Numbered from the stretch's first letter, positions 41,075 through 61,553 are shown. The stretch is DNA of 64,000 bases from an uncultured virus (IMG/VR IMGVR_UViG_3300028592_000009) (IMGVR_UViG_3300028592_000009), one strand, 5' to 3'. Program-made: numbers and translations. The notes: generated from the letters alone by a model not told the origin.

Positions 41075-41124
41075 GTTGGCTCTCCTGTTTGATGTGGACA
41101 CGACGGGAAACCCCGAGGTGTTCG

Positions 41125-47132: not shown

Positions 47133-47539
47133 CAGCCCTCCCAGACGATCTGGCTGCGTCGGAGTCCTGCGTTCAGCAGGACCTCCCAACACTTGTGGCA
47201 GGGCTCACGAGTTGTGTACAGCACACACGCCCTCGTGATCGGGTTGCCACGCTTGAAGAACTTGTTGATCGCGTTGATCTCCGCGTGGACGGCGGTGCAC
47301 CGGCCAACCCCGTCGAACCGAGCGCCGTGGGGAAGCTGATCGGTCGACATCTGGCCGCGCGGGCAGCCGCCGTCCTCGCAGTTGGTCTCGCCGGAGCGAG
47401 GACCGTTGTAGCCGACGAAGACCTCCTGGTTGTCCACCACGAGGACTGCACCGACTTGATCACGGAGGCAGGAGCTCCGGGTCGCCACCGAAGCAGCAAC
47501 CCCGAGCCACACCTCTGGCCAACTGGCCCTTCTAGACAT
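47132..47539 (-). CDS. dCMP deaminase
   Basis: 'RSSC...VGAVLV', 'GYNG', HAE and PCxxC zinc motifs. Confidence 0.9.
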   Translation of the reverse strand: MSRRASWPEVWLGVAASVATRSSCLRDQVGAVLVVDNQEVFVGYNGPRSGETNCEDGGCPRGQMSTDQLPHGARFDGVGRCTAVHAEINAINKFFKRGNPITRACVLYTTREPCHKCWEVLLNAGLRRSQIVWEG

Positions 47540-47732
47540 GAGCGATCGCCACCGACAGGTACATGATGCCGACGCCGAACGCGGCCATGCCCGGCAGCAC
47601 GAACGACTGGTCCTCGTCCGGGTGCAGGAACCAGCGACGCTGCACAGCGAGCACGATCCCACCCGTAACGGTGATGGCCGTCATGTAGCCCAGCATCCAG
47701 ATGAGCATGCTGACGGTGATGGCGATGTTCAA
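47532..47732 (-). CDS. small membrane protein
   Basis: Two hydrophobic segments. Confidence 0.5.
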   Translation of the reverse strand: MNIAITVSMLIWMLGYMTAITVTGGIVLAVQRRWFLHPDEDQSFVLPGMAAFGVGIMYLSVAIAHV

Positions 47733-47749
47733 GTCCCTGTCCTGTCTTG

Positions 47750-47971
47750 CTAGTTGCGAGGCGCCGTCGCGGACGGCGTCGGCTTCACGTTACCGTCCTT
47801 CGGAGCGGCGTCGTCCATCTCGCACCCCTGGAGGATCAGGAGTCCGATCGCGCCGACCGCCACGCCCTTGAGGAACGCGCTGGTGGTGTTGCCGTGTATC
47901 TTCTCGACGCTCTCCTTGGAGAGCGACATGGGAGTCCCCTTCGGGATCTTCTCCCAGGTCATCTTCGCCAT
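47750..47971 (-). CDS. small membrane/lipoprotein-like protein
   Basis: Hydrophobic stretch ending in LQGC. Confidence 0.55.
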   Translation of the reverse strand: MAKMTWEKIPKGTPMSLSKESVEKIHGNTTSAFLKGVAVGAIGLLILQGCEMDDAAPKDGNVKPTPSATAPRN

Positions 47972-48109
47972 GGCCCGTCCTTCCCACGGGTCAGGGAGGG
48001 TCCGGCGCGGCCCGCTACGGGGTCGTAGGCGGCCTGCCGGGCCCTCCCGAGTACCTTTGCCCGACCGGTCCGAGATCGGCCCTTACGCGGCCGTCTAAGG
48101 CTTCCGGAC

Positions 48110-48772
48110 CTACGACCCGCCGGTCAGCTTGTCGTAGCAGATGTCGCCGATGCCCCGTTCGCGAGTCCGCTCGTTGGTGAGCGGGCTGCTGCAGACTCCG
48201 CACTGTCCGACCTTCTGGCCGAAGAGGGCGAACGCCTCCGTGGGGTTCTCGTGGATGGCGCTGAGGATCTTGTACACCCGCAGCAAGCGGCGCCGACGGA
48301 AGTCGCCCGGAGCTCCGGTGAGCTCGCTGACGTCCATCCGTCGATTGCCTCGTCCGTCGTCCATGAGGCGGTGAACCTGGTAGAACCGGATCGTCTCGTC
48401 CTCGGACTGGAGCGCGTACTTGCCGGGCTTGATGGACAGGAACTTGTCGTCCCAGCCCGCGTACCCGGCCTGTGCGCCACGGACGTACGGCTGCTTGAGC
48501 ATCCTGGAGATGAAGGAGCTCGCGTCGGCGAACCCGAGCGAGTTGATCATCTCCTCGTACTCGGCCTTCTCCAGCTCCTTGTACTCAGCCAGCCGCTCCC
48601 GCTCCCGACCCAGCGCGTGCGCCAGGGACAGCTGCTTGTGAGTGGACTTGGCCTGGAGACCGTGGCTGTGACGGAGGACACGGTCGTGGGCGGTCTCCCG
48701 GGGCCGAAGCCCCGAGCAGGTCCTTACATCGTCGACCGTGTCGTGCTCGCCCTTGCAGTTACCGCACCTCAT
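48110..48772 (-). CDS. DUF6011-like zinc-finger protein
   Basis: N-terminal CGNC..H..C; C-terminal 'CGVCSSPLTNERTRERGIGDIC'. Confidence 0.7.
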   Translation of the reverse strand: MRCGNCKGEHDTVDDVRTCSGLRPRETAHDRVLRHSHGLQAKSTHKQLSLAHALGRERERLAEYKELEKAEYEEMINSLGFADASSFISRMLKQPYVRGAQAGYAGWDDKFLSIKPGKYALQSEDETIRFYQVHRLMDDGRGNRRMDVSELTGAPGDFRRRRLLRVYKILSAIHENPTEAFALFGQKVGQCGVCSSPLTNERTRERGIGDICYDKLTGGS

Positions 48773-49734
48773 CGGATCTCCTTCCGCGTGTCGCCGACAC
48801 GGGTCTGGCCGAGGTCGGCGTTCCGGCCGTCGTTGCGACCCCGGGAGTAGGACTCGCCGATGATCCGCTGCTGGTAGCTGCGACCCTCCTTGATGTTGTT
48901 GTCCTCCTTGTACTTGTCGTACGCGTCCTGGACGAGCGCCCCCTTGTCGCGGAGGGCGAGCTCGGCGCCGGTCGTCGCCTTGACCTGAGCGTCGCGGTGC
49001 TCCTGGAGCTTGTACAGACGGATCGAGACTTCGGTGCGGAAGCCCTCGGCGTAGGACCGCTGGAAGGTGACCGGCGTCTGGACCGCGCGGTACTCCAGAC
49101 CCATGAGCTTGCACCAGCGCTTGCAGGCGCGGATGAGGCGGCCGCCGTCCTTCTTCTTCTCGTGCCACTCGACCCACGGCCACGGCTCACCGATGGAGTC
49201 CTTGGGGTCGAGGTTGTGCTCCTCCATCCAGTGCATCCGGGCGATGTTCATCTGCGAGCAGGTCCGCTCCCAGTTGATCCCCGCCTCGTGCAGGATGTAG
49301 ACGTTCTCGTCGTACGAGCGCTGCATGTCGACCTTCGGGTCGATCTTGCGCAGCAGCTGGAGACGGAGGCTCGTGTAGACCATCTCGGCGAACTTGATGT
49401 CCGAGGGCAGACCGATGAAGTCGCCGAAGCCGTTGCTGTACCCGTGGAAGGCGCAGTCGTAGTGCTGCGCGACGCGGATGCAGAGGTTGTACAGGCTCGT
49501 CGCGATCGGGCTGTCCATACCGGCGAACTGGAAGCGAACGCGCTCCGGCATCTCGACCGGCTTGGCCTTGTCCTTGTTCGCGGCGGCGAGGATGGCCGCG
49601 TCGATCTGGTACTTGGCCATCAGCTCGTCGGCCTTGGCCATGAAGTTGTTGGCGGCCTCCTCCTGCCCGCTCTCGCGGTGGGACTCGGCGGAGTTGAGCA
49701 GCGCCTGGATCTTGTTGATCATGGCGTCAGACAT
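48769..49734 (-). CDS. DUF2786-domain protein
   Basis: 'KIQALL..AES...EAANNFMAKADELMAKYQID'. Confidence 0.75.
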   Translation of the reverse strand: MSDAMINKIQALLNSAESHRESGQEEAANNFMAKADELMAKYQIDAAILAAANKDKAKPVEMPERVRFQFAGMDSPIATSLYNLCIRVAQHYDCAFHGYSNGFGDFIGLPSDIKFAEMVYTSLRLQLLRKIDPKVDMQRSYDENVYILHEAGINWERTCSQMNIARMHWMEEHNLDPKDSIGEPWPWVEWHEKKKDGGRLIRACKRWCKLMGLEYRAVQTPVTFQRSYAEGFRTEVSIRLYKLQEHRDAQVKATTGAELALRDKGALVQDAYDKYKEDNNIKEGRSYQQRIIGESYSRGRNDGRNADLGQTRVGDTRKEIR

Positions 49735-49746
49735 GGGGTGCTCCCT

Positions 49747-49803
49747 GGTCTCCTCAGCATGGGTACCTTACCCATGGACGTGACTGGCTGTCACGTTTCG
49801 ACC
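49747..49803 (-). ncRNA. type II hammerhead ribozyme HH10
   Basis: GGUC-GAAAC-GUGAC AGCCA GUCAC-GUC^CAUGGG UAAGGUA CCCAUG-CUGAGGA-GACC; predicted cut 49777/49776. Confidence 0.93.
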
Positions 49804-49812
49804 TGGACGGGA

Positions 49813-50037
49813 TCAGTCGGTGCCGAGCACGATGTGCTCGTTGTTCGGGACGTCGCGGAGGGCGGCCTCGCGGATCGCCTCGTCCGACTTGTGCTTGTGC
49901 AGCATGTGCGCCAGCTTCTCGAGCTGCTCGGCGGAGATGTTGATCGCGTCCTGTCCGTCGTCGAGGAGGACGCCCTCCCATCCCTCGGACACGGTCGCCC
50001 AGAGGTAGTCGTCGAGCTGGACTCGTTCGTTCGCCAT
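49813..50037 (-). CDS. hypothetical protein
   Basis: AGGAG RBS, MANERVQL... Confidence 0.6.
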   Translation of the reverse strand: MANERVQLDDYLWATVSEGWEGVLLDDGQDAINISAEQLEKLAHMLHKHKSDEAIREAALRDVPNNEHIVLGTD

Positions 50038-50045
50038 GGTCGCTC

Positions 50046-50174
50046 CTAGCAGCCCTGGTTGAGGATGAAGATGATGCCGAGCAGGACGATGATCAGGAGC
50101 ACGATGCATCCGAACATCAGCTCGATGGCCATCTTGAGCATGTCGCCGTAGGACATGTTGGTGAAGCGCTTCAC
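50046..50174 (-). CDS. small single-TM protein
   Basis: GTGA overlap; hydrophobic C-terminus. Confidence 0.5.
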   Translation of the reverse strand: MKRFTNMSYGDMLKMAIELMFGCIVLLIIVLLGIIFILNQGC

Positions 50175-50461
50175 GAGATCGCCTCCCACAGCGGACGGGG
50201 CGCGTAGGGGCTGATCCTGCCATAGCCGTTCACCTGGTCCGTGGCCAGCCACACGGCCTTGCGCGCCTCGTCGGCGAGCTCTCCGTCGATGTAGTCGGCG
50301 AGCTCCTCACCCGAGATGACGCCGAGCACGACCCCGGTGAGCGGGTAGGTCGGCTGCATCCCGACGAGCACCTCGACCTCGGAGACGTCGACACCGGCGT
50401 CCTCCAGGTCCAGCCGGATCTCTCCGAGCTTCTCGATGAGCTCCGTGAGCTTCAGCTTCAT
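50171..50461 (-). CDS. hypothetical protein
   Basis: GGAGG RBS directly after a hammerhead. Confidence 0.7.
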   Translation of the reverse strand: MKLKLTELIEKLGEIRLDLEDAGVDVSEVEVLVGMQPTYPLTGVVLGVISGEELADYIDGELADEARKAVWLATDQVNGYGRISPYAPRPLWEAIS

Positions 50462-50472
50462 GTTCCCTCCAC

Positions 50473-50535
50473 GATCTCGTCAGCACCCGTGCCATACGGG
50501 CGGACGCCACGGCTGGATGTCGCAGCGTTTCGATC
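50473..50535 (-). ncRNA. type II hammerhead ribozyme HH9
   Basis: GAUC-GAAAC-GCUGCG..CGUGGC-GUC^CGCCCG UAUGGCA CGGGUG-CUGACGA-GAUC; cut 50503/50502. Confidence 0.92.
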
Positions 50536-50547
50536 TGGCTGTGGTGG

Positions 50548-50673
50548 TTACCAGTGGAGCCCGAAGGCTCGCAGGACCAGCCCGATGCCGACCCCGAGCA
50601 GGACCCCGAGGATGGCGCAGGTGGCGATGTTCCACGGCGTGTCCGTGAAGAACGAGTTGAGCTTGCGAAGCAT
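50548..50673 (-). CDS. small single-TM protein
   Basis: GGAGG RBS, hydrophobic segment. Confidence 0.55.
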   Translation of the reverse strand: MLRKLNSFFTDTPWNIATCAILGVLLGVGIGLVLRAFGLHW

Positions 50674-50770
50674 GAGCCCTCCCGAGGCCCTAGGCGGCCG
50701 TCTACGGGCCGCGCGTTGCCGGGTGAGCCCCTTCGCCCACCCGGCTTGCGTTCGGCGCTTACGTTGGCGC

Positions 50771-51313
50771 CTACGGCGTCTCGATGAACCCGGCCTCGTC
50801 GGCGTCACCATTCTCGACCGCCGCGAGCTGCGCCTCGGAGACGGCCGGATAGAGGCCAGCCGGGTGCTCGGTGAAGTTGCTGGCGCTGGAGCAGCCGATG
50901 TACTGGAGCTCGCACTCGATCACGCGGAGCTCGCGGTTGCGGATCTCCGTGAGGACGTTGTACCGAGCCTTGAGCTGCGCCTGGAGCCAGCTCGGGTCGA
51001 TCCAGGCCGAGGCCCGCATCTTCTCGTTCGCCTTGAGCTCCAGGTACGCGAGCCGAACGAACTCGTCGACGTTGCCGAACTGCTCCAGGGTCGGCTCCAG
51101 ACCGATCTCCATGTCGGTCCGGTTGCCGAAGGACTCCTTGAGGAGGTACTCGACCTCGTCGTTCTGCTCCTGCGCCCGGAGGCGGTCGATGACCTCGTTG
51201 GCCCGCTTCTCAGCGTTGAAGCCGAGGATGTCGACGAAGACCTCGATCGTCTCCGCCGTGTCGAACTCCAGGTTGGTCTTCTCGATGAGAAGGATCCGGA
51301 TACCCATAACCAC
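50771..51313 (-). CDS. hypothetical protein
   Basis: AAGGAG RBS after a hammerhead; GTG 51313 or ATG 51307. Confidence 0.7.
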   Translation of the reverse strand: MVMGIRILLIEKTNLEFDTAETIEVFVDILGFNAEKRANEVIDRLRAQEQNDEVEYLLKESFGNRTDMEIGLEPTLEQFGNVDEFVRLAYLELKANEKMRASAWIDPSWLQAQLKARYNVLTEIRNRELRVIECELQYIGCSSASNFTEHPAGLYPAVSEAQLAAVENGDADEAGFIETP

Positions 51314-51325
51314 GCTCACTCCTTG

Positions 51326-51378
51326 AGAGCTCCTCAGCACCGGCTCTTACCGGCGGACGCCCGAAGGCGTTTCGCTCT
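51326..51378 (-). ncRNA. type II hammerhead ribozyme HH8
   Basis: AGAGC-GAAAC-GCC UUCG GGC-GUC^CGCCGG UAAGAG CCGGUG-CUGAGGA-GCUCU; cut 51356/51355. Confidence 0.95.
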
Positions 51379-51441
51379 TGCCTGGCGCCCGGTGCAGGGG
51401 TTTGGGTGGTCGCCACCCTGCACCGGGGCCGTCATGGGGTG

Positions 51442-51927
51442 TTACTCAGCGGCCTTGGCGGCCGTGCGGCGGGTGCGCCGGACTCGCGGCTTGGCCACGG
51501 GCGCCTCCTCCTTGGCCTCCTCGACCGGAGCGGTCTCGGCCACGGCCTCCTCGACCTTCTCCGCGTCGTCCGACAGCGCCTGGTCGGCCTCGCTGTCGTA
51601 CTCCTCGGGCTTGGTCTCCTCGGCGACCGGCGCGGCCTCCTCGCCCTTGAGCTTGGCGAGCTCGGCCTCCAGCTTGGCGAGCTTGCGGGCCTTGGCCTCC
51701 TCGGCCTTCTTGGCCGCCGCGACCTTGCGGTCGGCGAGGTTCGCCTGGTTCTCCGGGCTGGCCTGGAAGTCCAGGCGGAAGGACACCGCGAGCTGGACGG
51801 TCTTGAGGTCGGGCTTGACCCCCGTCTTCTCCTCGATCCAGGCGGCGAACGCCTTGTGGAGGTCGGTGGGCTCGGCCTTGGCGCGCTCGGCGAAGGTCTT
51901 CTTCTTGGAGGCGGTGTTCTCGGTCAT
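51442..51927 (-). CDS. PTDLH-family protein paralog 2
   Basis: FAERA..PTDLHKAFAAWI.EKTGV..DLKTVQL; RBS after a hammerhead. Confidence 0.8.
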   Translation of the reverse strand: MTENTASKKKTFAERAKAEPTDLHKAFAAWIEEKTGVKPDLKTVQLAVSFRLDFQASPENQANLADRKVAAAKKAEEAKARKLAKLEAELAKLKGEEAAPVAEETKPEEYDSEADQALSDDAEKVEEAVAETAPVEEAKEEAPVAKPRVRRTRRTAAKAAE

Positions 51928-51939
51928 GGTAACTCCTAG

Positions 51940-52010
51940 GGACTCCTCAGCACCGGCACTCTACCGGCGGACCATCGGGGCGGCCTCTCGACCGCCCCTA
52001 GGTTTCGTCC
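51940..52010 (-). ncRNA. type II hammerhead ribozyme HH7
   Basis: GGAC-GAAAC-long stem III-GUC^CGCCGG UAGAGUG CCGGUG-CUGAGGA-GUCC; cut 51970/51969. Confidence 0.92.
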
Positions 52011-52258
52011 TGTGTACTGCTTCTCTCGCACCCGCCGGGACCTACCGGCTGCTTGTGCGAGGCGCGTCGACCAGTCGATTAGCCGAGCTACGGGTTTTGT
52101 GGAGGTCCCGTTCCTGTCAGAAGTCAGCGGCCCTTGCGGGGCGCGATCTCAGCCGTCTTCCTGGGCTGTCCTACTCGGGCTCGCGGTCTTCGGGCTGCGT
52201 CTCGACCGTCGGCTGGATGCGCCGTCCCGGGAGTTCCTCGCTTGCCCTGCTCGCTTAC
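52011..52258 (-). ncRNA. structured non-coding leader RNA A (unknown family)
   Basis: No credible CDS between promoter and HH7; shares covarying motifs with 55735-56148. Confidence 0.6.
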
Positions 52259-52265
52259 GAGTAGA

Positions 52266-52294
52266 ACTATGCGCCATTCCTCCGGGGAAGGCAA
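52266..52294 (-). promoter_or_regulatory. promoter driving ribozyme operon A
   Basis: TTGCCT-17bp-CATAGT, same hexamers as 56156-56184. Confidence 0.75.
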
Positions 52295-52451
52295 ACACCC
52301 ATCTACCTGCGCATTCATCGCGTTTGCCCTGGTAGGGGGCTTGCGAAGATTCTATAATTTCTTTCAAGAAATTACATATGCGCAGGTAGACATGAGTGTC
52401 GACCATCTACGGCGATTCACCGCGCCTCAGCGCGAATCGGGCGAAACCGCC

Positions 52452-52880
52452 CTACAGCGCCGTGAGCTTCCACAGCGAGCTGTCCTCCAGGCGCACAATC
52501 TGGGAGCCGTCCGAGGCCTTGCCGACGGGCTCGTACAGCTCCCAGGTGCCCGGCTTCTCCCAGGGGGCGCGCGGCTTGGCACGGGGCGGCACGGAGGCCG
52601 GGGTGCCGTCGCTGTGCGTGATGGGCTCATTCAGGTCCGCCAGGGGCACACCGGCCACGGCGGGCTGAGCCTTGGGCGCCGCACTGTTGACGCGCCAGAC
52701 GTGTCCCTTGGAGATCACGTCGATGTCCATCTTGTTCTGAGCGATGATGCGGCGCATGACAGCGCGGACCTGCTCGTCGCGGAGGCCGGTCTCCTTGCAG
52801 GCCTCGTTGATGATGATGGTCTGGCCGATGCGCGCGACCAGGTACTTGGTCATGGTCGACTGCACGTTCATGTTACCCAT
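52452..52880 (-). CDS. hypothetical protein (possible winged helix)
   Basis: AGGAGG after a hammerhead; 'NEACKETGLRDEQVRAVM...GHVWR'. Confidence 0.65.
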   Translation of the reverse strand: MGNMNVQSTMTKYLVARIGQTIIINEACKETGLRDEQVRAVMRRIIAQNKMDIDVISKGHVWRVNSAAPKAQPAVAGVPLADLNEPITHSDGTPASVPPRAKPRAPWEKPGTWELYEPVGKASDGSQIVRLEDSSLWKLTAL

Positions 52881-52896
52881 GTTGCAGAGCCCTCCT

Positions 52897-52958
52897 AGAC
52901 TCGTCAGCGGCCGTCTACGGCCGGACCGCACCCCGGTGACCCGGGGCCGGTTTCGTCC
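52897..52958 (-). ncRNA. type II hammerhead ribozyme HH6
   Basis: GGAC-GAAAC-stem III-GUC^CGGCCG UAGA CGGCCG-CUGACGA-GUCU; cut 52924/52923. Confidence 0.92.
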
Positions 52959-52967
52959 TGTGGAGGA

Positions 52968-53600
52968 TCAGACGTAGGACCAGGAGCGCACGACCGACAT
53001 GGTGCCATGGCTGGCGACCCGCTGCCTGGCCGCCTTGAGCAGCTCGTCCTGGTCGGGCTCTCCGAGCACCTTGACGCGCTGCTGGCTGATCTTGGCCGGA
53101 TACTTGAGCCCGTGCTGCTTGTCCATCTGCACGACGGCGAGCCTGTCGTAGCGGTTGAACTCGCTGTCCTCGAACCGGAGAATCACGCCCTCCATGCCCA
53201 CGTACCGGCCACGGGTGGTGAGCGACTTCACGCGCTTGCCGATGCCGGGGGTGGACCAGTTGTCCGTGGCCGACTTCACGAGCATGCGGATCGTCCACTC
53301 GTCGGCCGCCCTGAGCACGTCGATCGTGGCGTCGGCGGAGGCGTTGTGGTGGTACGTCCAGCCACGGGTCGTCGCGTACTGGATCGTCTTGACGCGCTCC
53401 TCCTCGGCGTCCCACACGACCGCGTAGAAGTCGCTGTCGTCGTGCATGTTGCGCTCGTAGATGCCGATCACGGCTCCGAGATAGGTCGTCTCGTGGGCCT
53501 CAAGGTGCAGTTTGTTGAGCGCCTCGTCGGAGCTGTACTGGTTGGGGTCGTACCCCTGCTCCTTGCCGTGCCAGGGGTTGGTGCAAGTGATGATGGGCAT
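52968..53600 (-). CDS. hypothetical protein
   Basis: GAGGAGG RBS after a hammerhead; 'HDDSDFYAVVWD...YATTR'. Confidence 0.75.
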   Translation of the reverse strand: MPIITCTNPWHGKEQGYDPNQYSSDEALNKLHLEAHETTYLGAVIGIYERNMHDDSDFYAVVWDAEEERVKTIQYATTRGWTYHHNASADATIDVLRAADEWTIRMLVKSATDNWSTPGIGKRVKSLTTRGRYVGMEGVILRFEDSEFNRYDRLAVVQMDKQHGLKYPAKISQQRVKVLGEPDQDELLKAARQRVASHGTMSVVRSWSYV

Positions 53601-53613
53601 GATTCCTCCTCGG

Positions 53614-53666
53614 GAGCTCTTCAGCAGGACCGTGCAGCCCTGGACGCTCACATGAGCGTTTCGCTC
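53614..53666 (-). ncRNA. type II hammerhead ribozyme HH5
   Basis: GAGC-GAAAC-GCUC AUGU GAGC-GUC^CAGGGC UGCACG GUCCUG-CUGAAGA-GCUC; cut 53643/53642. Confidence 0.93.
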
Positions 53667-53848
53667 TGGGTGGCGACCTCCGCACCCCTCCATATGAGTG
53701 CAGAGGCCGCCTGCGGGCCATTTCGAACAAGGCTCGTGCCCGGGCACAACCCGGTCGGACGATCGTGCTCCTAGGAGTGCACTAGCGAAAGCCGTGCTGC
53801 ACGAGCCAGGTCTTACGGATCCCCGCGTTCCGGCCGTCGCCGGAAGTC

Positions 53849-53998
53849 TTATGCCAGCTCCAGGCCTCTGTCGAAGCCGCACTGGGCATGGGCGACGATG
53901 CTGATGGCGCCCGAACGATCGGCCGTCCTGAACTCAGCCATCTCGTCGTCCGGCCCCTCGTCGCAGAGCTCGCAGTCGTCGTTGAACTCGGGCAGCAT
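53849..53998 (-). CDS. small Cys/His protein (49 aa)
   Basis: Read by hand: MLPEFNDDCELCDEG...HAQCG; TGATG coupling. Confidence 0.55.
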   Translation of the reverse strand: MLPEFNDDCELCDEGPDDEMAEFRTADRSGAISIVAHAQCGFDRGLELA

Positions 53999-54255
53999 CA
54001 GAGGGCCTTCCGAACGTTGATGGAGAGGACGACCGGGTTGGTCCAGATGTAGTTGCCGGAGCCGTCGGTGTTGCTCTGGTGGACGGTCGTCCTCCGGTCG
54101 ATGCGGTATGCCATCACGAACCGCGCGGCCATCGTTATGTCCGGGAGCTCGATGTCGAGCGTGCCGGTTCGATCCATGCCGTGGACCGTGGCCTTGAAGG
54201 CGGCCACGTTGCTCGTCAGCAGACCCTGCAGAACGGTGTCGATCTCGATGGTCAT
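53998..54255 (-). CDS. hypothetical protein
   Basis: GGAGG RBS after a hammerhead. Confidence 0.7.
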   Translation of the reverse strand: MTIEIDTVLQGLLTSNVAAFKATVHGMDRTGTLDIELPDITMAARFVMAYRIDRRTTVHQSNTDGSGNYIWTNPVVLSINVRKAL

Positions 54256-54264
54256 GATTCCTCC

Positions 54265-54321
54265 GGTCTCTTCAGCAGGCGCACCTTACGCCTGGACGTC
54301 GCTGGCTGCGACGTTTCGACC
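54265..54321 (-). ncRNA. type II hammerhead ribozyme HH4
   Basis: GGUC-GAAAC-GUCGC AGCCA GCGAC-GUC^CAGGCG UAAGGUG CGCCUG-CUGAAGA-GACC; cut 54295/54294. Confidence 0.94.
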
Positions 54322-54385
54322 TGGTTGGAGAAGTGGTCTTGCCGGCATGCCCATAAGCAGGCTAGCCAGACGGATAGGGCGGCCA

Positions 54386-54481
54386 TCAGGCCGCGCCCCA
54401 GAAGATCGCCAGGCTGACGGCGACAACGCCGATCACGAACAGGATGCACCCGAGGGCCATCTGGTCTCCGCTAACACCCAT
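54386..54481 (-). CDS. 31-aa single-TM peptide
   Basis: MGVSGDQMALGCILFVIGVVAVSLAIFWGAA; TGATG coupling. Confidence 0.5.
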   Translation of the reverse strand: MGVSGDQMALGCILFVIGVVAVSLAIFWGAA

Positions 54482-54600
54482 CAGAAGAACTCCACCTTCG
54501 AAACGATGAACATGAGCACGGACATGAGGACCATCCCGACCGCCATCAGCGCGAGCAGGAACAGGAAGCAGCCGCGCGCTTCCTCGTAGCCGTCGGCCAT
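54481..54600 (-). CDS. 39-aa single-TM peptide
   Basis: MADGYEEARGCFLFLLALMAVGMVLMSVLMFIVSKVEFF; TGATG coupling. Confidence 0.55.
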   Translation of the reverse strand: MADGYEEARGCFLFLLALMAVGMVLMSVLMFIVSKVEFF

Positions 54601-54719
54601 CAGAACACCAGCCCCATCAGGATGGTGAAGCCGACACCCAAGGCGAACCCCAGTCCGCCGAGACCGACAAGTATCTTGAACAGGTCGCTCCTGTCGCGAT
54701 CGCTGGAACCCATCAGCAT
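54600..54719 (-). CDS. 39-aa single-TM peptide
   Basis: MLMGSSDRDRSDLFKILVGLGGLGFALGVGFTILMGLVF; TGATG coupling. Confidence 0.55.
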   Translation of the reverse strand: MLMGSSDRDRSDLFKILVGLGGLGFALGVGFTILMGLVF

Positions 54720-54847
54720 CAGTGCTTCCTGCCCTTCTTGTCCTTGCCGGTGTTCTTGATGAGGACGTAGACGATCCAGCAGATCACGGCGATGAAGCCG
54801 AAGAACAGCAGGGTGTCCACGATGAGGATGAACAGTTCAGCGGGCAT
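54719..54847 (-). CDS. 42-aa single-TM peptide
   Basis: MPAELFILIVDTLLFFGFIAVICWIVYVLIKNTGKDKKGRKH; AAGGAG after a hammerhead. Confidence 0.65.
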   Translation of the reverse strand: MPAELFILIVDTLLFFGFIAVICWIVYVLIKNTGKDKKGRKH

Positions 54848-54858
54848 GCACTCTCCTT

Positions 54859-54941
54859 GAGCTCGTCAGCACGGCCACCTAGCCGTGGACGAGCCCCGGG
54901 CGAAGGGGTGTTGGGGAGTCCGCCCGGGGCTCGTTTCGCTC
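54859..54941 (-). ncRNA. type II hammerhead ribozyme HH3
   Basis: GAGC-GAAAC-long stem III-GUC^CACGGC UAGGUG GCCGUG-CUGACGA-GCUC; cut 54888/54887. Confidence 0.93.
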
Positions 54942-54945
54942 TGTC

Positions 54946-55254
54946 CTACTTGTCCGTCGGGACGTTGACGACCGCGTCGTCCGAGCCCCAGCCCGCGTTC
55001 GGGTCCGAGCCCTGGTCCTGCGGGATGTTGACGACCTCGCTGTCGTTGCCGAGGTACTGGTTCTCGTCGCCCATGTTGGCGATCTCCTTCTTGATCTGGT
55101 TCCAGATCGTCTCGTCGTCGAGGTGCGGGAACGTCTTCTTGGCGATGACGAAGACCGACTGAATCTCGATGTCTCCCTCAGCCCAGCAGGGCATGCTGCC
55201 CGGGCCCGGCACCTTCTGCTTGGTCAGCTCCTGGATGTCGAGCTCGACCTTCAT
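54946..55254 (-). CDS. hypothetical protein
   Basis: AGGAGG RBS after a hammerhead. Confidence 0.7.
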   Translation of the reverse strand: MKVELDIQELTKQKVPGPGSMPCWAEGDIEIQSVFVIAKKTFPHLDDETIWNQIKKEIANMGDENQYLGNDSEVVNIPQDQGSDPNAGWGSDDAVVNVPTDK

Positions 55255-55264
55255 GCTTCCTCCT

Positions 55265-55323
55265 AGGACTCATCAGCACGGCTTCCTTAGCCGTGGACCC
55301 GGCTGGCTACCGGGTTTCGTCCT
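55265..55323 (-). ncRNA. type II hammerhead ribozyme HH2
   Basis: AGGAC-GAAAC-CCGG UAGCCAG CCGG-GUC^CACGGC UAAGGAA GCCGUG-CUGAUGA-GUCCU; cut 55296/55295. Confidence 0.95.
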
Positions 55324-55649
55324 CAGTTGAACTGCGCCTCGACCAGCGTCCTGTGTCGGCGGATGGCCTGGCGTACCGCGTCGTACTTCGCCCCGTGCCG
55401 GAACGCCACGGCCTGCATGGCGCCTCTGACGCATCCGAGCTTGACCCAGTCCTCGTACAGCCTGGCGTCCGACACCCTGAGCGGAATGTACTCGCGCTGG
55501 ACGATGTCGTACCGAGCCTTGAGCCGCCTGCGGATGCAGGTTTCGGTCACTCCGTACTGGAGCGCCGTCTGCGAGACGTTCCGACCGAGCAGCTCCCACA
55601 TCGTGTGGATGCGCTCGTTGTCCTGGGGCAGCTGGCTGGTTGCCGGCAT
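55323..55649 (-). CDS. HTH-like DNA-binding protein
   Basis: 'GRNVSQTALQYGVTETCIRRRL'; GGAGG RBS after a hammerhead. Confidence 0.65.
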   Translation of the reverse strand: MPATSQLPQDNERIHTMWELLGRNVSQTALQYGVTETCIRRRLKARYDIVQREYIPLRVSDARLYEDWVKLGCVRGAMQAVAFRHGAKYDAVRQAIRRHRTLVEAQFN

Positions 55650-55660
55650 GCTCACCTCCG

Positions 55661-55734
55661 AGACTCTTCAGCAGCGCCGTTCAGCGCCGGACAGCCCGCC
55701 CCCGGGTCATGGCCAAGGGCGGACTGTTTCGTCT
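55661..55734 (-). ncRNA. type II hammerhead ribozyme HH1
   Basis: AGAC-GAAAC-long stem III-GUC^CGGCGC UGAACG GCGCUG-CUGAAGA-GUCU; cut 55690/55689. Confidence 0.92.
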
Positions 55735-56148
55735 TGTTGTGTTGCCTGCACCCCTGTGGGACCTACCACAGCGCTTGTGCAGTTCGCAGCTAGCTTTGCA
55801 CCTTGCCTACCAACCTGATGTGTCCACGTAGAAGCGGGTTCCGTGTCTCCCTCGCTTGTACGTGGCCGTCCCAGGCCAGTCGCGTGCTGTCAGCCTCTCG
55901 GCTGTCGCCTGCCACTACCGGTTGTGTGGGGGTCCGGTTCCCGTCTCGAGTCAGCCGCCTGCTGGACACCTTCTCCAGAGGGGGCGATTAAGGCCGTCTC
56001 CCTTGGCCCGCCCGGGTTGTCGTCACCGGGCTCCGAGTTCGACCGCGAGGGCCAGCTTGGGGGATGGGTTCCCGGTTCACCCGTAGGTCGCTTCCGGTCC
56101 GCTCTCCCCGCCTCAGAGGGGGTCGGACCCTCTGCGACTCGGTGTTAC
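55735..56148 (-). ncRNA. structured non-coding leader RNA B (unknown family)
   Basis: ~410 nt with no credible CDS between promoter and HH1; homologous to leader A. Confidence 0.6.
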
Positions 56149-56155
56149 GAGGAGA

Positions 56156-56184
56156 ACTATGCCCCAGTCGGGCTGAGAAGGCAA
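56156..56184 (-). promoter_or_regulatory. promoter driving ribozyme operon B
   Basis: TTGCCT-17bp-CATAGT. Confidence 0.75.
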
Positions 56185-56212
56185 ACAGCCTCCTACCTGG
56201 TCATTCATCGGA

Positions 56213-56288
56213 AAAGCCCTGGTAGGAGGCTTGCGAACAATCTTGAAGTTTTTTGAAGAAATCATGAAAGCCCTGGTAGGAGGCTTGC
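56213..56288. repeat. 22-bp direct repeat AAAGCCCTGGTAGGAGGCTTGC x2 (candidate operator)
   Basis: Exact copies at 56213-56234 and 56267-56288; related copy at ~52326-52344. Confidence 0.75.
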
Positions 56289-56457
56289 CGGCATGCCGAA
56301 GCCGTAGGCGCCCCGTAGGCGGCTCGCGAGCGCTCGCGAGGGCGCGGGTATCCGGGCGCGCCCGTTCGCCCCGTAGGCGGCCACGTAGCGGCTCTGCCGG
56401 GGCCGGAACGCAGAACAGCCCCGCTCCCTCTCGGGGCGGGGCTGCTGGGGCTGGATG

Positions 56458-56829
56458 CTAGTCGACGAACTCGCTCAGGATCGCGTAGACCTCGACCTTG
56501 GCCTTGCGGGTCGTGGCCGCCTCGGCGTTGACCCAGGGGCTCGTCGACTGGACGCCGTAGTCCTCGATCAGCTCGTCGCGCATCCGGCGGACCCGGTAGA
56601 CCAGCTGCTTGGACTGCTCGACCGCGTCGGCCTTGTACTTCTCGGCGACCAGGTACAGGCGGGTCCAGGCGTCCAGGACAGCCTCGGCCTTGGCCACGTC
56701 CTCCATCCGGCTGACCGGGACCCTGGTCGGCTCGGCGATCGCCTTGGTCAGCGCGTCGTACGCCTTGTTGAGGTTGGTGTTGGCCTTGGCGGCCTCAGCG
56801 ATCACGGCGGCGGCGAGGGACTGGTACAC
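56458..56829 (-). CDS. hypothetical protein (single-gene cassette)
   Basis: Own promoter (56872-56900), AACAAC leader, downstream hairpin. Confidence 0.75.
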   Translation of the reverse strand: MYQSLAAAVIAEAAKANTNLNKAYDALTKAIAEPTRVPVSRMEDVAKAEAVLDAWTRLYLVAEKYKADAVEQSKQLVYRVRRMRDELIEDYGVQSTSPWVNAEAATTRKAKVEVYAILSEFVD

Positions 56830-56924
56830 GGCGTTCTCCTTGTTGTTGTTCCGGTTGGCCTTACAGTAAGAACCATACCCCAGTCAGGGTGGAGGCGCTA
56901 CCCTCCACCCCGGGCTTTCCTGGA

Positions 56925-57485
56925 CTAGTTGTCGAGCTTGGGGCAGCAGGGCTTGGCGTCGTAGGCCATGTAGTTGTCCTCCAGGCTCGACTCACCCGAG
57001 TCGATCATGTCGGCGTAGATGATGTGGGTGACCTCGGTGTGGCTGCTGACCGTGACCGTCTCCTGGCTGTCGCCCTTGCGGCGGCTGCGCTTAATGTCGG
57101 CGCAACCCGCCTTGTGGACCTCCGGCTCGCCGTTGCCCTTGTACAGGATGGTGAGCTTGACCTTCTCGGCGGGCTCGACCGGGGCGGCCTCCTCGACCTT
57201 GGGCGACTCCTCCTTGCCGGCACGCAGCTTGGCCAGCTCGGCCTCCAGGCGCGCCTTCTTGCGCTCGGCCGCACCCTTGCGCTTCGCCTCGGCCTTGGCC
57301 TTGCGCTCGGCCAGGGAGGCCTGGTTCTCGGGGGAGGCCTGGAAGTCCATGCGGAGGGTGGTGACCAGCTGGACGGTCTTCAGGTCGACCTCGACCCCGG
57401 TCTTCTCGGTGATCCAGGCGGCGAACGCCTTGTGGAGGTCGGTGGGGGCGGCGGCGGCGCGCTCGGCGAAGGACTGCTTGGCCAT
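56925..57485 (-). CDS. PTDLH-family protein paralog 3
   Basis: N-terminal domain nearly identical to 51442-51927; different C-terminal Cys/His domain. Confidence 0.8.
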   Translation of the reverse strand: MAKQSFAERAAAAPTDLHKAFAAWITEKTGVEVDLKTVQLVTTLRMDFQASPENQASLAERKAKAEAKRKGAAERKKARLEAELAKLRAGKEESPKVEEAAPVEPAEKVKLTILYKGNGEPEVHKAGCADIKRSRRKGDSQETVTVSSHTEVTHIIYADMIDSGESSLEDNYMAYDAKPCCPKLDN

Positions 57486-57701
57486 TGTGGCTCCTCGTGT
57501 TAGGCTCGGGCTTCCTGCCCTCGCTCATGAGTAGAACTTTACCCCAGTGGACTGGAGGTGGCTACCTCCATTTGCAACTTTCTTGAAGATTCTTTCGGGA
57601 GGCCGTAGGCGGCTGTCTGCCGGCATGCCGGCATGAGCGGGGCGCCGGGCATGGGCGAGGCCCCCTCCTGGTGCGGAGGAGGCCTCTACGAGGCGGGGCG
57701 G

Positions 57702-57971
57702 TCAGAGCTTGGGGAAGTAGTGCGCCAGGTCGAGGTCCATCTGGTCGGGGTTGTCGCTGGGGTGCTCGACCACGTCGTACCCCTTGGCGCTGAGGTTGTT
57801 GTGTCGGACCCAGTAGACCCAGCAGTCCTCGTCGCCGGTCTCCATGATCTCCAGCCAGGGCCCCTTGTGGCGGTAGGTGGTGGAGACGTCGAATCCAGTC
57901 TCGGCCGACGCCTGAACCATCGCCACGAGCTCCTCGATGCGGATCATGCCGTCCTCCTCGTTGTTGTCCAT
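57702..57971 (-). CDS. hypothetical protein, possibly leaderless
   Basis: ATG 6 nt after -10 TAGACT; alternative ATG after GAGGAGG. Confidence 0.65.
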   Translation of the reverse strand: MDNNEEDGMIRIEELVAMVQASAETGFDVSTTYRHKGPWLEIMETGDEDCWVYWVRHNNLSAKGYDVVEHPSDNPDQMDLDLAHYFPKL

Positions 57972-58078
57972 GGGTAGAGTCTACGCCACTGCACATGTGC
58001 TGGCTACCTCCATGTGCGATTTGCTTTCGCAAACAGCAAAGCTCCGGCTGGCTGCCGGGGCTCGGGGTGTGGCTCGGT

Positions 58079-58426
58079 CTAGCTCTCAATCGCGGGCCGC
58101 GCCCGGAGGCGCTCCTGCGCCGCGATGATCATCGCCCGCAGCGCGGGGACATCGGGCTCGTCCGCGCTCGTTACGTCGTCGTACAGCTCACGCGCCGTCG
58201 CCTCCAGGTCCTCGACCAGCTCCATGTTCTCGGGCGTCATCTCGTCGTACATCGCGCAGTTGCAGTACGACCGGCTCCCGCACCCGCACCCCGTCGCCTT
58301 GAGCACGTACAGCTCGCTCGTGTCGTCCTTGACCGCCAGCATCGCCACGCCCGCCAGGTCGTACCGCTCCTGCGTGATGTCGACGTCGCCCAGGACCGCG
58401 TAGCCGGGGATCTTGTACTCGCTCAT
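58079..58426 (-). CDS. hypothetical protein with GCGC motif
   Basis: Own promoter, AACAACAACAAGGAG leader. Confidence 0.7.
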   Translation of the reverse strand: MSEYKIPGYAVLGDVDITQERYDLAGVAMLAVKDDTSELYVLKATGCGCGSRSYCNCAMYDEMTPENMELVEDLEATARELYDDVTSADEPDVPALRAMIIAAQERLRARPAIES

Positions 58427-58505
58427 CGTCTGCTCCTTGTTGTTGTTGATGGAACTATACTTCATGCCGGCTGGAGGCGCTACCCTCCAGCCGGAGAAGT
58501 TTCCG

Positions 58506-58751
58506 CTAGGACACCAGGGCCATGCGGACCGCCTGGATGATCTCCGAGGTGGTGAGGTCCGACTCCTCGGGCAGGGCGTCCATCAGGTCGAAGGACGCGG
58601 CCTTGAGGTGCAGCGGCATCGCCTTGCCCGCCGCGAAGTTCTCGGCGACAACGTCCAGCTCGCGGGCGGCGGTGAGGAGGCGCTGGGAGCGGAGGCGGTC
58701 GGCCTCGAAGAGGGCGGTGGCGATCACGGTGGTGAGGTTGATCATGTCCAT
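58506..58751 (-). CDS. hypothetical protein
   Basis: Own promoter and AACAAC leader. Confidence 0.7.
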   Translation of the reverse strand: MDMINLTTVIATALFEADRLRSQRLLTAARELDVVAENFAAGKAMPLHLKAASFDLMDALPEESDLTTSEIIQAVRMALVS

Positions 58752-58958
58752 GGGTCGGTCCTCCTGGTTGTTGTTCTCGCTTACAGTAAGAACTATACCC
58801 CAGCTGCAGTTGTGCGACTACCCCTTTGTGCAAACTTTCTTGAGATTCTTTTAGAGGCGCTACGTGGCCGTGTAAGGGCCTGCCGGCAAGCAAGGGTGCG
58901 CGGGTACGCAGAAGGCGCCCGCCTCCTGTGAGACGGGCGCCTACGGGCTCTTACGGGG

Positions 58959-59351
58959 TCAGAACGCCCGGCTGTGGACCAGTACCACCGAGAGCAGCTC
59001 GGCGGCCTCAACGTGCGCCCGGGTCCACTCCTGGATCACCCGGATCATCGCCTGGTGCTCGGTCTTGTCTGCCGGCATGGTCAGGCGGCGGGTGGGCTTG
59101 CGGGTCTTGCCCTGGTACGTGTACGTGAGCTCGAAGCTCCACTCAATCGTCTTCGGCTCGGGCAGCCACTCCGGGTTGGCGTTGGGGGCAACGGTCTCCA
59201 GCAGCGCCCGGCAGGTCGAGCACACGCGGCGCTGCCAGCTGGTCGCCATCCCGTGGTAGGTCTTGCCCTCGCGGATGACCGGCTCGGTGACGATCTCGGT
59301 GTCGGCCAGCGCCTTGGGCTGCTTGCAGTCGTAGCAGGTGGTCTCGGTCAT
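58959..59351 (-). CDS. hypothetical protein with two CxxC motifs
   Basis: Own promoter and AACAAC leader. Confidence 0.7.
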   Translation of the reverse strand: MTETTCYDCKQPKALADTEIVTEPVIREGKTYHGMATSWQRRVCSTCRALLETVAPNANPEWLPEPKTIEWSFELTYTYQGKTRKPTRRLTMPADKTEHQAMIRVIQEWTRAHVEAAELLSVVLVHSRAF

Positions 59352-59450
59352 GGCTGCTCCTCGTTGTTGTTCCTGAGAGAACTCTACCCCAGTGGACTGG
59401 AGTTGACTACCCCTTGCGGGGCCCGGTTCTGGACCGGGCCCCGGGGTCGG

Positions 59451-59576
59451 CTACTCGGACTCGGCCTCCGCCCGCATCGCCTCGGCGGCCTGCGCCTCGT
59501 GTCCGGCGTCGGTGCCGTCGCAGCCGGGGTGGCTGAAGCAGGCGGTCCGGCGGTCCTCGGTGGGCTGCTCGCTCAT
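59451..59576 (-). CDS. 41-aa hypothetical protein
   Basis: Read by hand: MSEQPTEDRRTACFSHPGC...; own promoter. Confidence 0.6.
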   Translation of the reverse strand: MSEQPTEDRRTACFSHPGCDGTDAGHEAQAAEAMRAEAESE

Positions 59577-59694
59577 GGTGTTCCCTCTCGTTGTTCTCTT
59601 GCTTACGAGTTCAGTATACTCCACTGCACATTGGTTGGCTACCCCTTTGTGCAGATTGATCGGGGCGGGTCCGCCGGGACCCGCCCCGGTTCTA

Positions 59695-59937
59695 CTAGTA
59701 GCTCAGGCCGACCCAGTAGGTCGCGGACACCGCGCCCCAACCGACACCCGGGGCGCCCATCTCCTTGGCCTTGGCGGTGACCTTGGTCAGGACGTCCTTG
59801 GAGCCACGGATCTTGTAGGTCTCGATGACCGGGGTGGTGGACTCGAAGCCCTCCTTGATGGTCACCGTGCACCAGCCGTTGCGGCCGATGCGGACCTCGA
59901 AGCGCGTGTCCTTCGGGAGGGTCTTGTTCTCGTCCAT
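59695..59937 (-). CDS. hypothetical protein
   Basis: Own promoter, AACAAC...AAGGAG. Confidence 0.7.
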   Translation of the reverse strand: MDENKTLPKDTRFEVRIGRNGWCTVTIKEGFESTTPVIETYKIRGSKDVLTKVTAKAKEMGAPGVGWGAVSATYWVGLSY

Positions 59938-60163
59938 GTCCTGCTCCTTCTTGTTGTTCGAGGCTCCTTGCCTCATGAGTAGAACTTTACTCCAGTCCAC
60001 TGCAGCTGGCTACCTGCAATCGCAACTTTCTTCAAGATTCTTTCAGACTCATGCCGGCTTGGATTCCAGGCATCAAACCAAGTCTACTCCATGCCGGCTT
60101 GTATGGCTACTCTCCAGGCGCAACAAAAAGCGGCCCACCCCGAAGGGCAGGCCGCCGGGCCGG

Positions 60164-60508
60164 TTAGGCGCGATAGCCACATCCGGCGCAGTTGAAGCCG
60201 AACCCGACAACCGGGGCGCAGTCGGCACCGCAGCCGACGCCCGGGGACCAGGGGGACACCGTAGAGGCCGCGACCGGACCGGTGCACACCAGGCGCCACG
60301 TAAGGTCGTACCAGGAGCAGCCGTAGGAGAGGACGCGACCGGAGCGCACATCGCGCTGGACCGAGGACACGATACCCACCAGGCCGCGCATACCAGACAG
60401 GGCCGTAACGGAGCGGCGCAGAGCCGGGTCGGAGGACGAGCCCGGGACGAAGACCAGCGAGCCGACGGGAAGGGCGGGGACGTAGGCGGGAAGGACGCGA
60501 CCGGACAT
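60164..60508 (-). CDS. hypothetical protein
   Basis: Own promoter and RBS; atypical codon usage. Confidence 0.5.
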   Translation of the reverse strand: MSGRVLPAYVPALPVGSLVFVPGSSSDPALRRSVTALSGMRGLVGIVSSVQRDVRSGRVLSYGCSWYDLTWRLVCTGPVAASTVSPWSPGVGCGADCAPVVGFGFNCAGCGYRA

Positions 60509-60626
60509 TTTTACTCCTCGTTGTTGTCGATAGTAGAACTCTACGCCAGTGCACTCCACCTGGCTACCCTCCAGTCCAAACAAAAGCGGCCCGCCCCGGG
60601 AAGGGACGGGCCGCGAGGGGCGCCGG

Positions 60627-60881
60627 TTAGAGGCCGAGCTCCGACCGGTCGGCGGCCAGGGCCGCGTCCAGGTAGGCCGCCGTCGGCTCCGACCCGTCCA
60701 TGGGCTCACAAGCGTCCAGGACGTCGTAGGAGTCGCCCTCGGGCTTGGCCCAGAAGGAGAAGCCGCACTCCGGGACGGAGGCGTCGAACTCGACCCAGTC
60801 CCCAGCGGTCCGGCCGGTGGCCGTAACGGGGAAGCGCGGGTCGGACTCGGACTCGGCGATGACGCGGGCGATGAAGTCCAT
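60627..60881 (-). CDS. hypothetical protein
   Basis: Own promoter and downstream terminator (60583-60615). Confidence 0.7.
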   Translation of the reverse strand: MDFIARVIAESESDPRFPVTATGRTAGDWVEFDASVPECGFSFWAKPEGDSYDVLDACEPMDGSEPTAAYLDAALAADRSELGL

Positions 60882-61039
60882 TGTGGTTCTCCCTCTTGTT
60901 GTTCGGGGCTCCTTGCCCCTTGTAGTTTAAGTATACTCCAGTTGGACACCTCTGATTACCTCCAACTGGGAATTTCACAAGATTGTTTTGGACATACCGG
61001 CAGGCCGCGCCCCGGAGAGAGGCGCGGCCCAACGGGCGA

Positions 61040-61231
61040 CTAGGCGCAACCGGCGCCGTGGGGGTGGGCCATACGACCGCAGTCCAGGCAGACGTGGGAC
61101 AAGCAGTAGCGGTCGAAGGGCAGCGCCGAGCAGTCGGAGCACGCGGCCACACGGGCGGCCACGGCGGCGAAGAGCCGGACGTAGAGGGCGGTAACGGGCA
61201 CGAGCACGAGGTGGTCCTTGTTGTTGTCCAT
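61040..61231 (-). CDS. small zinc-finger protein, possibly leaderless
   Basis: ATG 6 nt after TAGACT; CxxC...CxxH..CxxC. Confidence 0.6.
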   Translation of the reverse strand: MDNNKDHLVLVPVTALYVRLFAAVAARVAACSDCSALPFDRYCLSHVCLDCGRMAHPHGAGCA

Positions 61232-61322
61232 AGGTACAGTCTACCCCAACTCCAGCTGTTTGGCTACCTGCACATGCAGAGGCGCCCACCCCTGGTGCGG
61301 GGCAGGCGCCTCGTGTCCGGAC

Positions 61323-61553
61323 CTAGCTGTCGTACTTGTACACCAGCTGGTCCTGCGTCCGCTCGCCACGGACGTACTCGACCTGGGTCAGCAGCTCGTG
61401 CTTGGTCATGTGCTGGATGTACCAGCCGACCGACCAGTCACGCGACTCGCCAGACGGCGGCGTCCAGGCCGCGTCCGGGGCCAGCCACAGCGGACGGTGG
61501 TCCGCCAGCGCCTCGGCCAGCTGCTGCTTGGTCATCTCAGACGTCTTGGTCAT
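61323..61553 (-). CDS. hypothetical protein
   Basis: Own promoter, ACAACAAC leader. Confidence 0.65.
   Translation of the reverse strand: MTKTSEMTKQQLAEALADHRPLWLAPDAAWTPPSGESRDWSVGWYIQHMTKHELLTQVEYVRGERTQDQLVYKYDS

Follow-up and report, generated by a model that had tools for sequence, protein, structure and literature searches.

Ten type II hammerhead ribozymes precede the gene blocks of a phage operon and probably divide two transcripts into units

We analyzed a stretch of 64,000 nucleotides (nt) from an uncultured virus (IMG/VR IMGVR_UViG_3300028592_000009), referred to here as the window, in which ten elements with the features of hammerhead ribozymes lie among the genes of a minus-strand operon. 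The window represents most of a phage genome, where plus-strand genes extend up to ~24.9 kilobases (kb) and minus-strand genes occupy ~25 to 63 kb, and third-codon-position GC is high in the listed frames. All ten elements reside on the minus (coding) strand, along which they are numbered HH1 to HH10 (Table 1). An initial annotation of this DNA had placed them at the same coordinates, with the exception that HH2 (given there as 55265-55323) and HH8 (51326-51378) differ by 1 nt per end from our model hits as a result of stem II trimming.

Table 1. Positions of the ribozymes and their associated features. Positions refer to the window unless a locus is named; the numbers of HH copies follow the minus strand, and cut sites are predicted.
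Feature	Position	Strand	Cut site	Remarks
HH1, type II hammerhead	55661..55734	-	55690/55689	Predicted to take leader 1 off gene 55323-55649
HH2	55266..55322	-	55296/55295	Abuts upstream stop codon; gene served 54946-55254
HH3, long stem III	54859..54941	-	54888/54887	Rfam 25.6 bits; four tiny overlapping frames served, 54386-54847
HH4	54265..54321	-	54295/54294	Rfam 26.6 bits; genes served 53998-54255, 53849-53998
HH5	53614..53666	-	53643/53642	Rfam 24.1 bits; gene served 52968-53600
HH6	52897..52958	-	52924/52923	Rfam 18.0 bits; gene served 52452-52880
HH7	51940..52010	-	51970/51969	Predicted to take leader 2 off gene 51442-51927; orthologous copies exist
HH8	51327..51377	-	51356/51355	Rfam 26.2 bits; gene served 50771-51307
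HH9	50473..50535	-	50503/50502	Rfam 26.6 bits; genes served 50171-50461, 50046-50174, 49813-50037
HH10	49747..49803	-	49777/49776	Serves 48769-49734 (DUF2786, DUF7168) and genes beyond; orthologous copies exist
Possible decayed hammerhead	50700..50745	-		Stem-I-like hairpin and Shine-Dalgarno region resembling HH6; precedes 41-codon frame 50548-50673
Promoter-like unit P1	56149..56300	-		AT-rich repeat, inverted repeat, TTGCCT-N18-CATAGT; putative function
Leader 1, ~414 nt, non-coding	55735..56148	-		Runs directly into HH1
Promoter-like unit P2	52259..52420	-		AT-rich repeat, inverted repeat, TTGCCT-N18-CATAGT; putative function
Leader 2, ~248 nt, non-coding	52011..52258	-		Runs directly into HH7
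Core-variant copies, U4C	L045 4450-4513, L046 4248-4311			
Core-variant copies, GUA triplet	L045 8640-8703, L046 8610-8673			

By core, topology and covariation, the ten elements are type II hammerheads. A script applied to the window sequence found the full core in every copy (C3 U4 G5 A6 N7 G8 A9, G12 A13 A14, the A15.1-U16.1 pair and C17), and the standard pairs that flank it, G10.1-C11.1, C1.1-G2.1 and A15.1-U16.1, are likewise present in all ten. Three helices with such flanking pairs are what Perreault et al. (2011) required in order to accept a hammerhead (PMC3088659). The order of elements is the same throughout, running from the stem II 5' strand through GAAA, the stem III hairpin, GUC, the stem I hairpin and CUGANGA to the stem II 3' strand. 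Stem II is therefore left open while stems I and III are closed by loops, as in the type II topology, and RF02276 (clan CL00010) is the best Rfam family. When each copy is folded alone, the hammerhead three-way junction is the minimum-energy structure for all ten. Core, order and fold thus uphold the topology and the invariant core of the initial annotation, and its ten cut sites are identical to those of our script.

Stem II is an open helix of 4 base pairs (bp), stem I comprises 6-8 bp in 16-19 nt, stem III ranges from 14 to 46 nt and loop I is constant in length at 6-7 nt. The previously listed stem II pairs GGAC/GUCC, GAGC/GCUC, GGUC/GACC, GAUC/GAUC and AGAC/GUCU are all confirmed, and HH6 adds a further variant, GGAC/GUCU, which includes a G-U pair. 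The core pattern GAAAC-N8-38-GTC-N12-30-CTGANGA occurs nine times in the 64-kb window versus 0.30 expected matches (shuffle maximum 2, n=100), and every match falls on the minus strand at one of the claimed sites. HH3, with its longer stem III, is the copy that lies outside the pattern.

Covariation was assessed with an alignment of the ten copies and a hand-written structure. Paired cells make up 97.0% of this alignment versus 69.5% in shuffles, none of 500 shuffles being as high, and slid-partner controls give 28-44% pairing. Two-sided changes occur at 13 of the 17 pairs, such that the compensatory differences between helices noted in the initial annotation hold up. A covariance model built from the ten window copies, R1, recovers all of them at 52.7-71.1 bits, which is true by construction. 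Since the next best R1 match on either strand scores 17 bits, the window holds no further copies by this model.

The closest named genomes are those of the Streptomyces phages Yara, Dryad, Rooney and Gibson. Together with Lizz, PHTowN, ShakeNBake, Wentworth and phiRKBJ001, these constitute cluster BN, a group of lytic Streptomyces siphoviruses with ~69 kb genomes whose published description leaves ribozymes unmentioned (PMC8852317). The search of related phages that had been proposed as a check finds arrays kept in all nine named genomes, with R1 matching eight copies each in Yara, Lizz, PHTowN and ShakeNBake, seven each in Dryad, Rooney and Gibson, and six each in Wentworth and phiRKBJ001. 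Every array lies on the minus strand and spans ~7.6 kb or less. Two extra Yara matches, at 19 and 16 bits, were set aside as noise, and record G001, which returns the same ten matches and scores as the window, was treated as the same phage and lends no independent support. The Yara, Dryad and Gibson records annotate only protein-coding genes in the parts viewed.

Adding the copies of Yara, Dryad and Gibson to the ten of the window, 32 in all, extends the covariation to these relatives. In an alignment fitted to R1, a procedure that favors pairing, 94.6% of cells are paired versus 67.7% when shuffled, and stems I and II are paired in 100%. When copies are grouped into orthologous sets by the protein they precede, the set ahead of the DUF2786 gene (HH10 and its orthologues in the four phages) keeps stems I, II and III through two-sided changes, and the stems of the HH7 set are likewise kept. 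The compensatory changes within the ten copies and within the DUF2786-gene set argue for selection on the RNA fold. The core itself is intact in 30 of the 32 copies, the other two carrying U4C. As a separate observation, the first copy in Dryad and in Gibson has a GUA cleavage triplet and a stem I that begins with a G...C pair.

Stems III and I are stable hairpins, and one might propose that the elements are structured intergenic modules without catalysis, which act, for example, by binding a protein, by pausing or terminating transcription or by promoting translation. High-GC actinobacterial terminators can lack a U tract, which would suit such a role. This proposal, however, gives no reason for C17 to be fixed, for GAAA and CUGANGA to be unpaired yet invariant, or for a closing stem II to be present, and a search for terminator-like sites within the block returned none on the minus strand; we regard it as very unlikely.

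The copies occupy a regular position relative to genes. As initially described, each is intergenic and directly ahead of a gene, ending 5-17 nt before the start codon with a Shine-Dalgarno sequence in the interval, and the same spacing holds for all 32 copies of the four phages, where the frames that follow are 35-331 codons long. On the upstream side, the ribozyme begins 0-12 nt past the stop codon in the six cases read. By reading, eight of the nine non-overlapping gene junctions of the block contain a ribozyme and the ninth contains the apparent decayed copy, where the CUGANGA core and stem III are gone and R1 gives just 7.2 bits (50706-50738). Genes without a ribozyme of their own overlap a neighbor by 1-4 nt. 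The ten ribozymes head ~10 translational units with roughly 19 frames, several of them overlapping and coupled. The notion of a gene-by-gene array goes too far: ribozymes do punctuate gene blocks on the coding strand, but ten ribozymes serve ~19 frames, and the first ribozyme of each transcription unit would sever a non-coding leader rather than a cistron.

Products of the genes served include members of nameless PHROG families, one sub-threshold helix-turn-helix match, DUF2786, DUF7168 and DUF6011. The four frames behind HH3 comprise 42, 39, 39 and 31 codons with one-base overlaps, and the first reads as a hydrophobic, membrane-like peptide. A minus-strand frame at 54252-54386 is doubtful and would cross HH4. 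We also considered an outer extension of stem II that would mask the Shine-Dalgarno sequence until cleavage; it fits a few window copies, but many of the 32 lack a complement, and the idea was rejected.

Cassette content varies among the relatives with ribozymes at the borders. In Gibson, for example, the third ribozyme precedes the gene that follows HH1 in the window, and Yara has no match to the cassettes of HH3 and HH4. Such variation would be expected if the pairing of ribozyme and ribosome site served mainly as a border of exchangeable gene cassettes, that is to say, as a selfish or recombination linker for which cleavage is incidental. In contrast, the copies have only roughly 20 core bases in common and differ in their helices, which is too little for homologous exchange. 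They also keep to one strand with a start codon within 5-17 nt, and their compensatory changes point to selection on the RNA fold. A linker role accordingly carries only a slim chance of being the main explanation.

Two promoter-like units, P1 and P2, are homologous across ~150 nt, and each is followed by a long non-coding leader. We infer that HH1-6 belong to one transcription unit and HH7-10 to another. The two long transcripts of the initial annotation fit this pair of homologous units and their leaders, with the qualification that the promoters are putative and are named from unit-to-unit homology together with a sub-threshold hexamer pair. Leader 1 is 79% identical to Yara over 409 nt and is partly conserved in Dryad and Gibson, while leader 2 is 80% identical to Yara over 408 nt. 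Homologous leaders number two per genome in the window, Yara, Dryad and Gibson (loci L011, L045 and L046 for the latter three). They share a block with a conserved hairpin whose pyrimidine-rich loop is CCUCC-like and resembles an anti-Shine-Dalgarno sequence. The leaders have no Rfam match, and the consensus structure of eight of them is weak (-13.2 kcal/mol, with compensatory changes at 3 of 21 pairs). The word GGTAGGTCCC, which stands ahead of HH1 and HH7, was tried as an enriched word and rejected: it gives 55 matches versus 70 expected when 2 mismatches are allowed, and just two exact copies. Ahead of HH5 on the minus strand lies a non-coding stretch of 183 nt (53667-53849), 85% identical to Yara and containing an imperfect palindrome, which could be an extra promoter or operator within unit 1.

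Judged from sequence, it is quite probable that self-cleaving type II hammerheads in the 5' untranslated regions of phage middle genes cut two transcripts into units, and we infer this processing to be the best supported of the explanations weighed here. The two homologous promoter-like units would start two long minus-strand transcripts. Stems III and I would fold as each ribozyme emerges, and the stem II 3' strand, appearing just ahead of the Shine-Dalgarno sequence, would close the core and permit a co-transcriptional cut after C17. Because the 4-bp stem II alone would then join the products, they are expected to part. The downstream RNA would begin at the stem I hairpin (-7.6 to -10.9 kcal/mol), whose first paired base would bear the 5'-OH. 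Next would come about 11-15 unpaired nt, CUGANGA plus 4 nt among them, and then the ribosome-binding site. In the upstream RNA, a 2',3'-cyclic phosphate would stand one base beyond the terminal stem III hairpin (-6.7 to -32.8 kcal/mol).

The predicted outcome is the conversion of two transcripts into ~10 translational units severed from the RNA upstream of them, the 414-nt and 248-nt leaders being part of what is removed. With a hairpin at either end, each unit could have its stability and translation set separately, and the widely differing strengths of stem III may tune these settings. Catalysis by comparable elements has precedent. In the accessible text of Perreault et al. (PMC3088659), self-cleavage is described for tandem phage hammerheads in vitro and for a triple arrangement in E. 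coli, and three type II hammerheads by phage-like genes are described as cleaving in Desulfovibrio vulgaris in vivo in the available part of a second report (PMC8782182).

Several observations weigh against constitutive processing by the array. All ten copies fall short of the RF02276 gathering threshold of 37 bits, and the best of them scores 26.6 bits. In the Rfam check proposed in the initial annotation, with E up to 10, the type II model reports six of the ten copies (18.0-26.6 bits, E 0.043-8) and leaves four unreported. The 37-bit score is a curated cut-off and no structural feature. Fold z-scores extend from -0.34 to -4.65, and four of the ten are weak (-0.34 to -1.66, short of -2). In the majority of type II hammerheads, loop I forms a pseudoknot with the 3' tail, according to the accessible portion of Perreault et al. 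(PMC3088659). In the window copies, complementarity between loop I and the flank is 1.4-1.5 bases versus 1.5 in the control, by a crude test in which loops were over-trimmed. At cellular Mg2+, minimal hammerheads that lack a tertiary contact cleave slowly.

The relatives and the transcription signals add further points of this kind. The HH7 orthologues of Dryad and Gibson are the copies with U4C (CCGANGA). Five more distant actinophages with similar genomes, whose helicases are 37-38% identical (Rhodococcus MacGully, Gordonia GTE5, Nocardia NC1, Corynebacterium Kimchi1738 and Microbacterium Haunter), contain no copies, which indicates that this genome type does not need the device. A consensus sigma-70 scan called no promoters in 47500-57500, and P1 and P2 are for that reason described as promoter-like. 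Finally, messenger RNA cleaved by glmS is degraded by cellular RNases, as stated in the accessible part of a 2019 review (PMC6765202), and this decay weakens the case for a simple stabilizing role.

These same features bear on whether the elements are true hammerheads that act slowly or conditionally, with regulated or partial cleavage for timing or tuning in place of constitutive cleavage and with some copies as relics. The sub-threshold Rfam scores, the loop I/tail pseudoknot that the crude, over-trimmed comparison did not find, the U4C variants and the decayed copy near 50700-50745 are all compatible with such behavior, and regulated cleavage of phage hammerheads is raised in the available text of Perreault et al. 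(PMC3088659). Set against this, the unpaired core is invariant in all ten window copies and in 30 of 32 over four phages, and the pairing of stems I and II is complete. Loop I, in addition, is held at 6-7 nt, and a like loop motif occurs in an unrelated viral contig, a constancy and recurrence that suggest a conserved contact. Slow or conditional action is improbable as the general explanation.

The unrelated contig, G002 (loci L189 and L190), was encountered in a pattern scan of IMG/VR that returned at least 132 stretches, several of them sharing a contig. At 125.7 kb and 58% GC, it carries nine type II copies, six and three at opposite ends, with the same layout of stop codon, ribozyme, ribosome site and start codon. 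Stem II is GGAC/GUCC in eight of the nine, and loop I is UAAGG-like and resembles that of the window. These similarities hint at a subtype that is widespread and whose loop I makes a conserved contact other than the tail pseudoknot.

Cleavage could have consequences beyond the separation of messages. The freed 248- and 414-nt leaders, ended by a cyclic phosphate, might act as a phage riboregulator, or the hairpin-capped units might escape host 5'-end-dependent decay or be rejoined into circles. We consider this set of roles unlikely; if true, it would provide a defined physiological role for natural bacterial hammerheads. Rejoining as such, whereby excised units would become circular or spliced RNAs through an RtcB-type ligase of the host or a reversal of the hammerhead reaction, appears hardly probable. 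The 5'-OH and 2',3'-cyclic phosphate ends would suit RtcB, an RNA repair ligase according to a reference cited in the accessible part of PMC8782182. Because GGAC/GUCC is the stem II of most Dryad and Gibson copies, a hammerhead could re-form there from the two ends of one unit. Circular or spliced products were, however, sought by Perreault et al., who found none as far as the available text reports (PMC3088659). Neighboring window copies, moreover, often have mismatched stem II strands, and the helix is just 4 bp.

Processing of the two transcripts by the array can be compared with several known systems. In bacteriophage T7, host RNase III cuts double-stranded hairpins between the cistrons of the early messenger RNA to give separate, hairpin-ended messages. 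The array would likewise cut a long early or middle phage transcript between cistrons and leave hairpin ends. T7 depends on a host protein enzyme, in contrast to the present case, where the RNA carries the catalyst and the predicted ends are a 5'-OH and a 2',3'-cyclic phosphate.

A closer precedent is found in prophages. Perreault et al. (2011) described, in the accessible text, multiple hammerheads that flank single genes or short blocks and proposed that they process messages to gene length, with three tandem arrangements tested, from Clostridium scindens, Azorhizobium caulinodans and Agrobacterium tumefaciens (PMC3088659). As in those clusters, several same-strand hammerheads, type II among them, flank genes here, and the proposed role is the same. 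The window differs in holding ten copies per 6 kb, whereas the accessible account of the earlier clusters has them tested as ~2-kb fragments with one triple arrangement. It also differs in belonging to a cultured lytic phage family and in having two copies that are predicted to cut off long conserved leaders. In the window copies, the crude, over-trimmed comparison found no loop I/tail pseudoknot. The suggestion in the initial annotation that such an array had gone undescribed does not stand, as both the processing idea and clustered phage hammerheads are already in the accessible text of Perreault et al. (PMC3088659) and the unrelated contig G002 has nine copies. Our literature search, which left most subscription journals outside its reach, returned no report of hammerheads from Streptomyces phages or other actinobacteriophages.

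Relative to RF02276 and the D. vulgaris copies, as given in the accessible sources, the window copies have the same core, likewise leave stem II open while stems I and III are closed, and lie similarly near phage-like genes. They depart from RF02276 in having a stem II of 4 bp versus the two pairs of the Rfam consensus line, scores of 18-26.6 bits versus the 37-bit cut-off, and a 3' tail that is a Shine-Dalgarno sequence and apparently no pseudoknot partner. An engineered parallel is RiboJ, whose cleavage leaves the message with an end hairpin ahead of the ribosome-binding site; in the available part of the report, it raises transcript ~2-fold and protein 2- to 10-fold (PMC6206723). HH1 and HH7 are placed as RiboJ is, between a leader and a ribosome-binding site, where cleavage would create a new 5' hairpin. 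RiboJ, by that same partial account, was engineered from the ribozyme of a plant satellite RNA, to which a hairpin was added; here, in contrast, the retained hairpin would be stem I of the ribozyme itself, and the device recurs along an operon.

Beyond the array, the neighboring minus-strand region from 61.7 to 56.4 kb (56400-61700) contains ~11 small genes, each with a promoter-like unit, an A/C-rich leader (AACAACAAGGAG-like) and a hairpin terminator. Their promoter-like units contain a GGTAGCC-like word followed by a TAnAnT-type -10. Judging from these features, the early genes appear to be made monocistronic through transcription and the next block through ribozymes. One early-block gene on the minus strand with its own promoter-like unit (56925-57485) is a paralogue of the gene behind HH7, both belonging to PHROG phrog_20596. 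Elsewhere on the minus strand, a tRNA-Ala with anticodon CGC (41124-41203) is identified by Rfam (45.4 bits) and by ARAGORN and is the sole gathering-level Rfam match of the window; the cluster BN announcement describes its phages as being without tRNAs (PMC8852317).

The role of bacterial self-cleaving ribozymes is described as 'largely elusive' in the accessible part of a 2019 review, where processing of polycistronic messages is a suggestion that needs work (PMC6765202). To this the present analysis adds a very regular ten-copy array that is conserved in nine named cultured lytic phage genomes, with two ribozymes predicted to sever long conserved leaders. For annotation, the consequence is that the Rfam gathering threshold misses all ten copies. 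Most large arrays so far are in prophages or uncultured viral contigs, in contrast to the array here, which occurs in cultured lytic phages with known laboratory hosts, such as S. griseus ATCC 10137 for Gibson and S. viridochromogenes DSM 40736 for Dryad. Such phages offer a culturable model in which cleavage during infection, the stability and translation of each message, and the effects of catalytically dead cores would be accessible by phage genetics and end-specific RNA sequencing.

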